Source of the DNA: Verrucomicrobiota bacterium
Lineage (GTDB): Bacteria > Chlamydiota > Chlamydiia > Chlamydiales > JAFEGQ01
DNA: 37,229 nt
Assembly (NCBI GenBank): GCA_018239785.1
Contig: JAFEGQ010000218.1
Location: 1 to 37,229 of the forward strand
Direction of reading: 5' to 3'
Position 1 is the stretch's first letter; each line of letters begins with the position of its first letter. The notes beneath the pieces are model-generated. The model searched no databases and was not told the DNA's origin. It was given only the letters and a program-made list of their open reading frames with translations. Shown here in pieces: positions 25,625 to 27,591 of this stretch. A program made the translations under genes and the position numbers.

Positions 25625-26168
25625 GGTTCGTTTCCTTCTTTACAGGATTCTTGTTTACAGGTGTTTTGGGTTTGGAGCGCGGTGCTACCACTGTGGAGAT
25701 CGTGCGCCCCAAGAATTTCACAGGCGCTTCTAGCGCCGCAATGTCATCTAAATCTTGGACCATTTTCTCGACCACCCGCTGTCCCACTTCTGGGTGGGCA
25801 ACTTGCCGACCGCGGAACATACAGGTAATTCTTACTTTTAACCCCTTCTCAACAAAGTCGCGCGCCTTACGCAATTTTGTTTGAAAATCGTGTTCATCAA
25901 TGTTGGGTTTAACCTTGATCTCTTTGACTTTGATGTGATGTTGAGCTTTTTTGCTCTCTTTCTCTCGCTTCTGTTGATCATAGCGAAATTTTCCATAGTC
26001 AATGATCTTACAAACGGGAGGAACAGAGTTAGGAACAACCTCGACAAGGTCAAGATTTGCCTCCTCTGCCATTCGCAGCGCCTCATCTCGAAAGACGACA
26101 CCTACTAACTTTCCTTCCTCGTCGATCAGGCGCACCTTAGGGGCACGAATCTGTCTATTGGTCCTCAA
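25617..26168 (-). CDS. infC: translation initiation factor IF-3
   Basis: [21 protein letters not shown]...EANLDLVEV...[14 protein letters not shown]...[12 protein letters not shown]. Non-ATG start (TTG 26168 in the ORF track), as is usual for infC. The exact start is uncertain. Confidence 0.9.
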
Positions 26169-27591
26169 TGCTGCCTCGCGTATCGCATTCTCGTTTCAAA
26201 CGCTCTATTAACTCCTCAAAACTCAGTAAGAAGAGCGTCTCGTCATTCCATCTTTTTAGCCGCAAGCGCCCCTCACCTTCAGCTGTGCCGATCACAGCGA
26301 CATAAGGGACACCTGCAAGCTGACTGCGCCTGATTCTGGCACTCAAGCGCTCTTTTGTGCAATCAAGGACAGGGCGCATCCCTTCCTGACGCAACAGTTC
26401 GCAGACCTTAATAGCCTGGCTCCCTTGTTCTTGCGTCAAAGGGATCACACGCACCTGCTCAGGTGCAAGCCACAAAGGGAGGACCCCATGGGTATGTTCG
26501 AGAAGTCGATCGACAAAAATGTCTAACGCACCAAATAAAGTGCGCTGAATCTGCCAAAGGCCATCGCTCCTCACCTCCAAATGCACTTGGCACCCCTCCC
26601 ACTCTCGCCCCAGTCGATCGGTCAACTGCAACGAGATAATAAGTCCTGGAAAATTGGGTGGCTCTGTTTCGATAAAGTAGCTTAACTTGCTCTCTTCGAA
26701 AGTCTTAAGCGCAATCTTCCAGATTTGCTCCTGTCGAGCTTTGGAAGCTTGAGCCCCCCATAGACTCCACTGACTGCCAAGCGAGAGGATCTTAGCGACT
26801 TGTAGCATAGCTTGCAAGTGAGATTTCAGAGTAGAGGGAACCTGTTCAAGATGGCAAAAATGGGTCACCCGTTCAAAGGGGGCAATCTCCGCATAGCCGC
26901 AGGGAAGGGGCGGGGTCTCTCGTTCGAATAAAATTTTATGAGGAATAAGACCTGTACTTACTCGATGCGCCCCACACTGCAGCTCCTGCCACCACCGGGT
27001 TAGCTCTTCACGTACGACCTCCCCTTGAGGATGCCAAAGGCGCTCGTTCTCATAAAAAGAAAATAACCCCCTCTCTTTCCCCAACCCATGGGCATCGATG
27101 AGTTTTTTTCTCCCCTGCAAAAACTTTTTTAACCCTCCTTCTTCTGCAAAAGCAACTCCAGAGAAGCGCCATTTTCCTCTTAAAGGAGAGACATCAAGGA
27201 GGGCAAAAGGAGGGATTTCTCCGGTATGACGCAAATGGGGCGCGGGGCAAAGGTCCCGAAATTCTCCGATTTCGATCAATTCAACCCCTTCGCTTGATCC
27301 ACTTGCTATTTTTTGAGCGAGCTGTTTTTGACCGAGAAATTGGAGGTACTCGGCCGCATTCGAGCGCAGCATATGGAGTGTCTTGATGGGGCGCGCCTCT
27401 TCGATAATGCGGCGCATCTGTTTTGTGACCTGCTTGAGAGAAGGGGGCTCTGTGAGGGCAATATCGCAGAAAAAAGATTCCCCTTCGACTCCCCCGCAGC
27501 TCAGCTGAGCATCAGGTCTAAGCTCTAGAAGAGCACATGCAAGGACTTCGCCCGCACACTTGCGGGCCGATCGAATAGAATTTATACTCAA
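26155..27591 (-). CDS. ThrRS-like protein: no TGS domain, degenerate editing and class II catalytic motifs, conserved anticodon-binding domain
   Basis: TTG 27591 with GAGG upstream. It begins at the position equivalent to the start of the ThrRS N2 domain (IRSA...). It retains [10 protein letters not shown] and [15 protein letters not shown]...GVPYVAVIG. The motif 2 region is collapsed and motif 3 reads [11 protein letters not shown]. Confidence 0.8.

Follow-up and report, generated by a model that had tools for sequence, protein, structure and literature searches.

Catalytically inactive relatives of aminoacyl-tRNA synthetases (aaRS) are already known as a kind of protein. HisZ, a paralogue of histidyl-tRNA synthetase (HisRS) that acts as the regulatory subunit of ATP phosphoribosyltransferase, and the accessory subunit of Pol gamma both use the class II synthetase fold as a binding or regulatory module which does not aminoacylate tRNA. 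Threonyl-tRNA synthetase (ThrRS) of Escherichia coli autoregulates its own translation by means of an operator that mimics the anticodon arm of tRNA-Thr. Here, a ThrRS paralogue with a collapsed active site is described from an assembly labelled Verrucomicrobiota bacterium and placed in the Chlamydiales by GTDB (GCA_018239785.1, contig JAFEGQ010000218.1, positions 1 to 37,229); these 37,229 nucleotides are referred to as the window. The paralogue is a 478-aa protein encoded on the minus strand in the slot before infC, where thrS is usually found. Overall, it appears that this protein is a non-enzymatic descendant of ThrRS and belongs to a family that has been kept in this slot under selection, with a binding or regulatory role rather than that of an enzyme. 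The probability of this reading is put at roughly 0.65.

The 478-aa protein was aligned with E. coli ThrRS and 40 other canonical enzymes, and the residues discussed below, in E. coli numbering, are invariant in all 41 of them. None of the three zinc ligands is left: Cys334 is deleted, His385 is replaced by Thr, and His511 by Gln. Arg363 and Glu365 of motif 2 are deleted as well, and Arg520 of motif 3 is lost. The class II core carries two in-frame deletions, one in the Cys334 region and one in the motif 2 loop. In the editing site, His73 and His77 of HxxxH are changed to Lys and Glu in an 11-residue segment (residues 6-16 of the protein), and Cys182, His186, and the equivalent of D180 are kept in a 10-residue segment (residues 111-120). 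In the anticodon-binding domain, Glu600 is kept and Arg609 is changed to Lys. Since no zinc ligand is left and both motif 2 and the Arg of motif 3 have disappeared, the protein can neither activate threonine nor charge tRNA-Thr, and Ser-tRNA-Thr editing is hardly feasible since HxxxH is gone. The alignment shows a protein which, as far as its sequence can tell, is catalytically dead, with aminoacylation out and editing nearly so; it is referred to below as dead ThrRS. An earlier note, made from the DNA sequence alone, had considered aminoacylation of tRNA-Thr unlikely on the basis of these same losses, and had pointed to a retained anticodon-binding domain. Careful alignment leaves no zinc ligand, motif 2, or motif 3 Arg intact, the two editing histidines are replaced as had been stated, and the anticodon-binding domain is recognised by PF03129. 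The motif strings and coordinates of the note are correct too, exactly so for motif 3 (nt 26515-26547), and what remains of the zinc-Cys/motif 2 segment falls within the interval it had given approximately (nt ~26842-26979).

Profile searches and structure prediction agree with the alignment. Pfam recognises only tRNA_SAD (residues 103-133) and HGTP_anticodon (PF03129, residues 379-467, E = 3.2e-15), and the scan of the 478-aa protein gives no match to the class II core (PF00587). Against TIGR00418, the equivalog model for threonine--tRNA ligase, the protein scores 159.2 bits, which is below the cut-off of 383.65. The match to NF011500, the Ser-tRNA(Thr) hydrolase model, reaches 47 bits against a cut-off of 362 and is confined to the C-terminal domain. 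Sequence matches in the PDB are to ThrRS only and form two separate blocks on either side of the missing core. An AlphaFold2 model based on a 42-sequence alignment has a pLDDT of 91.2 and a pTM of 0.83, and its best Foldseek matches are the full-length ThrRS structures 1QF6 and 1NYQ (TMq 0.67-0.71). For a minimal family member of 317 aa the pLDDT is 84, with a very confident N2 (editing-type) domain and a small core.

The earlier note had proposed a search for the canonical thrS elsewhere in the genome, and such a gene was found on contig C125 (G000:C125). Its 638-aa product scores 678.6 bits to TIGR00418 and has TGS, HxxxH/CxxxH, zinc ligands, and motifs 2 and 3 all in place, so that every catalytic and editing residue is present. 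The gene is divergent from its upstream neighbour (L001 1291-3207) and has a leader of 53 nt. An E. coli-type operator was considered for this leader and dropped because of its shortness and the absence of any obvious anticodon-arm mimic; operator-like RNA was not found in the 14-nt spacer before the dead-ThrRS ORF (open reading frame) or by Rfam, either. Downstream of the canonical thrS of Waddlia come a minD/parA-type gene and one related to pGP6-D.

The dead ThrRS belongs to a large family. A second, shorter ThrRS-like frame is present in about half of the 40 order-level relatives that were searched. The ORF lies directly before infC-rpmI-rplT-pheS in all 20 relatives fetched, in which its product ranges from 309 to 591 aa, and tRNA-Val(GAC) lies directly before the ORF in 18 of 19. 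When infC was used as a bait for finding loci in named genomes, the block tRNA-Val(GAC) - dead ThrRS - infC was recovered from metagenome-assembled genomes (MAGs) labelled Waddliaceae, Simkaniaceae, Rhabdochlamydiaceae, Parachlamydiales, and Chlamydiia, with tRNA-Val upstream wherever upstream DNA is present. A word-indexed protein search returned mostly canonical ThrRS and three family members; hence an exhaustive profile search was made over 1.84 billion representatives, with clusters at 50% identity, and the best 150 matches were taken. All of these are 430-612 aa long and score 428-627 bits, and the family therefore comprises at least 150 clusters. Pfam has no family dedicated to these proteins. 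A hidden Markov model of the family, built without the copy in the window, gives this copy 358 bits compared with 159 bits for TIGR00418. In the free phylogenetic tree, 23 paralogues, the window copy among them, form a clan with SH-aLRT support of 100 on a long stem.

Residue conservation was examined in a 46-member set and in 147 new hits among the best 150. Cys334 is found in two of the 147 and His511 in another two, never both in the same protein (0/147), and the Arg of motif 2 survives in just 5/46 and 10/147 members. Arg520 of motif 3 is kept in 36/46 and 126/147. In members having the anticodon-binding domain, Glu600 is kept in 29/29 of the first set and 139/140 of the second, and Arg609 in 25/29 and 133/140. 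The family also has conserved residues of its own, namely Met at E. coli position 139 (98%), Lys at 230 (96%), and ISSLQF at 398-403; the SSLQF-type motif is foreign to canonical ThrRS and occurs in 108 of the 147 new members. The strongest of the family-specific residues, M74 and K155 in the numbering of the 478-aa protein, are carried by its N2 domain.

Purifying selection acts on the family in those pairs of sequences that are close enough to be tested. The pair with the highest similarity (L071/L073, 78% identical), in which the core has collapsed much as in the window copy, has a nonsynonymous rate (dN) of 0.135 and a synonymous rate (dS) of 0.67, with an omega of 0.20 (bootstrap confidence interval 0.15-0.28). 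By domain, dN/dS is 0.18 for N2, 0.24 for the core, and 0.17 for the anticodon-binding domain; infC of the same pair gives 0.06-0.11. A second pair (L064/L065) has a dN/dS of about 0.1. As regards a check which had been proposed together with the original observation, the orthologues across the order are open frames under purifying selection and not frameshifted pseudogenes. Expression, which the note had suggested, is also supported, since the orthologue wcw_0913 is transcribed in Waddlia. In RNA-seq data its logCPM is 11.75, along with 12.24 for infC, 11.70 for rpmI, and 12.55 for rplT, and the canonical thrS wcw_0025 is well below it with 9.84 (PMC7760296 Table S1). Both wcw_0025 and wcw_0913 are placed in orthogroup group_120 (PMC7760296 Table S1); comparative tables of this kind count the two genes as one family and the paralogue is hidden. 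The supplements of other Waddlia studies gave nothing.

Features of the window locus and of the encoded protein are listed below, together with three named members of the family from cultured hosts.

Table 1. Features of the dead-ThrRS locus in the window, domains of its product, and family members in cultured chlamydiae.
Feature	Position or accession	Strand	Length, basis or remarks
Dead-ThrRS ORF, 478 aa, TTG start, stop included	26155..27591	-	ORF call, Pfam, TIGR00418, PDB matches
tRNA-Val(GAC), directly upstream of the dead-ThrRS ORF	27606..27679	-	ARAGORN; Rfam tRNA 66.5 bits
Spacer between tRNA-Val 3' end and TTG start	27592..27605	-	14 nt; sequence read
infC (initiation factor 3, IF3), TTG start at 26168	25617..26168	-	ORF call; ~60% identical across the order
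rpmI	25427-25624	-	operon downstream of infC
rplT	25055-25414	-	operon downstream of infC
pheS	24030-25058	-	operon downstream of infC
N2 (editing-type) domain, residues ~1-150	27142..27591	-	Pfam, alignment, residue table
Linker helix and reduced class II core, residues ~151-368	26488..27141	-	alignment, residue table, model secondary structure
Remnant of 19 residues at the PMNCPGH/motif 2 site, residues 229-247	26851..26907	-	alignment, residue table
SHLQAM, weakened form of the family-specific motif (I)SSLQF	26806..26823	-	alignment, family residue table
Motif 3 remnant, 11 residues	26515..26547	-	alignment, residue table
HGTP anticodon-binding domain, residues ~369-470	26182..26487	-	Pfam, residue table
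Simkania negevensis member	F8L5F3		428 aa; database name 'hypothetical'
Waddlia chondrophila member	D6YVW3 = wcw_0913		509 aa; 'His/Gly/Thr/Pro-type tRNA ligase C-terminal domain-containing protein'
Protochlamydia amoebophila member	A0A2P9H9M5		587 aa; database name same as Waddlia entry

The ORF had been read in the earlier note as a 478-aa frame with a plausible ribosome-binding site (RBS), a 14-nt overlap with infC, and the canonical thrS slot, and all of this stands: the frame is on the minus strand, GAGG at 27596-27599 is located 4 nt before its TTG, and infC, rpmI, rplT, and pheS come after it in the same orientation. Its stop, a TAG at 26155-26157, is 11 nt within infC, which gives the 14-nt overlap, and the Shine-Dalgarno sequence of infC (GAGG, 26174-26177) is located within the dead-ThrRS ORF. 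The distance to tRNA-Val, given previously as 15 nt, had to be corrected to 14 nt. A scan for promoters and terminators found no such site in this spacer and nothing useful on the minus strand, and Rfam over 23500-28500 found the tRNA only. Since the spacer has no terminator- or promoter-like site, and since the ORF runs into infC at its end, tRNA-Val, the dead-ThrRS mRNA, and infC are likely to be co-transcribed.

Upstream of tRNA-Val, a gene for a leucine-rich repeat (LRR) protein occupies 27697-29349 on the minus strand, and its stop is 17 nt from the 5' end of the tRNA (27680-27697). Because of this short distance, the promoter for the tRNA and the operon would be inside the LRR gene, or else the whole would form one transcript. 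The gene upstream of the same block in Waddlia is divergent, unlike the LRR gene. The infC start in the window (26166-26168) is apparently TTG; it is probably correctly placed at 26168, since its initial residues, RTNRQ, align from position 1 onward with almost every relative. E. coli IF3 has an AUU start, which is used in autoregulation.

Two further observations concern the annotation of family loci. As tRNA-Val is often very close to the gene, ORF callers extend the dead-ThrRS frame into the tRNA at several of them (L030, L034, L036, L038, L039, L042, L044, and L047), so that the 3' half of the tRNA is translated into a spurious N-terminus, either MTSWRSAVRVSYIP or, in another frame, VEVSCSSQLYP; such a tRNA-derived extension is also present in a public protein record (P0019). 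Four loci (L049, L050, L057, and L061) carry the labels 'Verrucomicrobia bacterium', 'Chlamydia trachomatis', or 'Bacteroidetes bacterium', and their infC is ~58-63% identical to that of the window, with the chlamydial tRNA-Val arrangement in L049 and L061 as well. These labels look wrong, and the loci probably belong to environmental chlamydiae.

With regard to the origin of the family, a similar arrangement occurs outside the Chlamydiota. In Omnitrophota (L087) and Planctomycetales (L093), tRNA-Val(GAC) is followed by a live thrS without TGS (573-580 aa, HxxxH intact) and then by infC. The absence of TGS from the dead ThrRS, which was reported correctly in the earlier note, is thus probably inherited, since the live thrS that Omnitrophota and Planctomycetota have in this slot is likewise without TGS; the part of the claim that described it as a loss within this gene probably does not hold. 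When the family was constrained to group with chlamydial thrS, the tree was not rejected by the approximately unbiased (AU) test (p-AU 0.62). Neither was the tree that groups it with the slot thrS of Omnitrophota and Planctomycetota (p-AU 0.77), which has the best likelihood found. Both placements are unsafe because of the long branches. In the dead gene we probably see the thrS that originally occupied this slot in the Planctomycetes-Verrucomicrobia-Chlamydiae (PVC) lineage and was displaced by a TGS-bearing copy.

Several findings weigh against a family kept for its function, and some of them concern the window copy itself. Its nearest relative is only ~30% identical, and therefore the constraint on this particular gene is not measurable. 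It has lost Arg520, the SSLQF motif, and the motif 1 Pro, which most members keep, it retains 18 of 32 family-specific conserved columns, and by its fit to the family it ranks 33rd of 46. This genome thus has an intact copy, yet one that is more eroded than the family average. The anticodon-binding domain is missing in half of the first 20 members, and anticodon binding is therefore not the universal function of the family. The gene is deleted, with tRNA-Val abutting infC, in L049, L056, L079, G002, G005, and G007, and within the genome's own family G001 has a full-length gene (580 aa), G003 a 158-aa remnant, and G002 a deletion. A family of 24 genomes (f35; 1.0-1.3 Mb in 1-2 contigs), presumably the Chlamydiaceae, has the canonical thrS only; a second, shorter match is found in ~62 of the 76 genomes outside it. 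The gene is dispensable in many lineages, being truncated, a remnant, or deleted. In addition, neither AU test decides between an ancestral slot gene and an intra-chlamydial duplicate, and the free tree leaves the point of attachment open.

These findings may suggest that the copy in the window is a decaying relic, i.e. a not-yet-disrupted pseudogene whose family has a function in other genomes, and whose own translation, if any, would be of no consequence. Its extra erosion would fit such a fate, as would a very long terminal branch in the tree (2.38, versus 0.33 for the canonical thrS of the same genome), the remnant and the clean deletion in its own family, and the recurrent losses across the order. 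However, the frame is open over 478 codons behind a good RBS, every indel relative to its relatives is in frame, and the AlphaFold2 model is confident throughout. Glu600 is kept together with the best-conserved family residues F40, M74, G145, K155, G190, D325, and W331, and the core of L071/L073 has collapsed similarly at a dN/dS of 0.2, so that a relic is unlikely. The ORF might also be maintained for a role of its DNA or RNA in cis, as a spacer, a carrier of promoter or RBS, a processing site, or a leader for translational coupling to infC behind tRNA-Val, rather than for its protein. The infC promoters of E. coli are located inside thrS. The position of the infC Shine-Dalgarno sequence within the ORF and the overlap of the stop with the infC start are compatible with this, and so is the overlap or direct contact between the stop and infC at roughly half of the family loci. 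Such a role is nevertheless very unlikely to explain the gene, since the constraint is seen at the protein level, in all three domains and in family-specific residues, and since tRNA-Val stands directly against infC in several lineages, where infC must be expressed independently of the ORF.

A gain of a different catalytic activity, as has happened in synthetase paralogues that became amino-acid ligases or tRNA- or protein-modifying enzymes, would agree with the motif 3 Arg being kept in most members, with the long forms still matching the class II core model of Pfam, and with the existence of new conserved residues. But motif 2 is deleted and Arg520 lost in the window copy, few members of the family have the motif 2 Arg, and there is no conservation of D383, Y462, K465, and Q484 in the pocket, which makes a new enzyme highly improbable. 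There is next to no chance that the protein still works as a ThrRS or as a stand-alone Ser-tRNA-Thr editing enzyme; although the overall ThrRS fold, the C182, H186, and D180 equivalents, and the anticodon-binding domain are present, this idea is refuted at the level of sequence by the losses in the zinc site, motif 2, motif 3, and HxxxH, in addition to the NF011500 score far below its cut-off and the intact thrS elsewhere in the genome.

The preferred reading, that of a non-enzymatic descendant with a binding or regulatory role, can be potentially described as follows. A TGS-less slot thrS of the PVC lineage would have become non-catalytic when its task passed to a TGS-bearing thrS, and the gene would have remained co-transcribed with tRNA-Val and infC. 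Its product is predicted to consist of N2 and anticodon-binding domains with a mini class II core between them. In E. coli ThrRS (1QF6), the anticodon of tRNA-Thr is recognised by Glu600 and Arg609. Since these residues are nearly invariant where the C-terminal domain is kept, as it is in the window copy, this domain may still bind an anticodon loop of the tRNA-Thr type, in a tRNA or in an mRNA mimic. Because half the family does without the anticodon-binding domain, the function common to all members would have to be carried by the N2-plus-core module. The dead ThrRS may thus serve the translation apparatus by binding or regulation, and a role in RNA binding or regulation is the best guess. 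The earlier note had proposed a tRNA- or mRNA-binding regulator of this operon, a putative role for which the near-invariance of Glu600 and Arg609 is indirect support. A more specific proposal is tentative and rather unlikely to be right in its details: the protein could act in trans as an RNA-binding protein that, by way of its conserved residues for anticodon recognition, senses or sequesters tRNA-Thr or an mRNA mimic of the tRNA-Thr anticodon arm and tunes the co-transcribed IF3-L35-L20-PheRS operon, or it could be a heterodimer partner of the live ThrRS. If true, a synthetase would have been turned into a dedicated regulator, and its N2-plus-core part would have a second function that survives in the short forms.

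Searches of the literature, for the topic as well as for gene names, accessions, and the locus tag, brought up no paper that describes the dead-ThrRS family. A ThrRS that has lost both its catalytic and its editing site and is still in the ancestral slot is a variant for which no description was found. The family has apparently been retained through the entire history of the environmental chlamydiae. In databases it is hidden behind entries called, for example, 'hypothetical protein', 'anticodon-binding domain-containing protein', or 'putative threonine-tRNA ligase', and orthology pipelines merge it with thrS, by which genomes may be credited with two ThrRS; this is relevant for the reading of aaRS gene counts in reduced genomes. 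From ~590 aa to ~300 aa, to remnants, and to deletion, its members form a natural series in which the gene of an essential enzyme is displaced, repurposed, and lost. The function is testable through the cultured hosts Waddlia, Simkania, and Protochlamydia.

Compared with canonical ThrS (TIGR00418; 1QF6 from E. coli and 1NYQ from Staphylococcus aureus), the dead ThrRS has the same architecture from N2 onward, the same fold and anticodon-binding domain, and the same slot before infC; however, it is without TGS, the zinc site, motif 2, the motif 3 Arg, and the editing HxxxH, and its family evolves several-fold faster. The TGS-less slot thrS of Omnitrophota and Planctomycetota (L087, L093, and L124) shares the three-gene neighbourhood and, with 573-593 aa, the length of the long members. 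Unlike the dead family, it is live, with HxxxH and the catalytic residues intact and ~44% identity to E. coli ThrRS. The crenarchaeal ThrRS-ed, a free-standing Ser-tRNA(Thr) hydrolase, likewise does not aminoacylate, leaves charging to a separate protein, and keeps the anticodon domain, but its editing site is intact, whereas the chlamydial protein has lost the editing histidines. HisZ derives from a different parent enzyme, has a partner enzyme, and is without an anticodon-binding domain, but the dead ThrRS may work in a similar manner. Finally, the autoregulation of E. coli ThrRS is a precedent for a ThrRS anticodon domain that reads an mRNA stem-loop near the same operon, and the residues Glu600 and Arg609 are conserved in the dead family.

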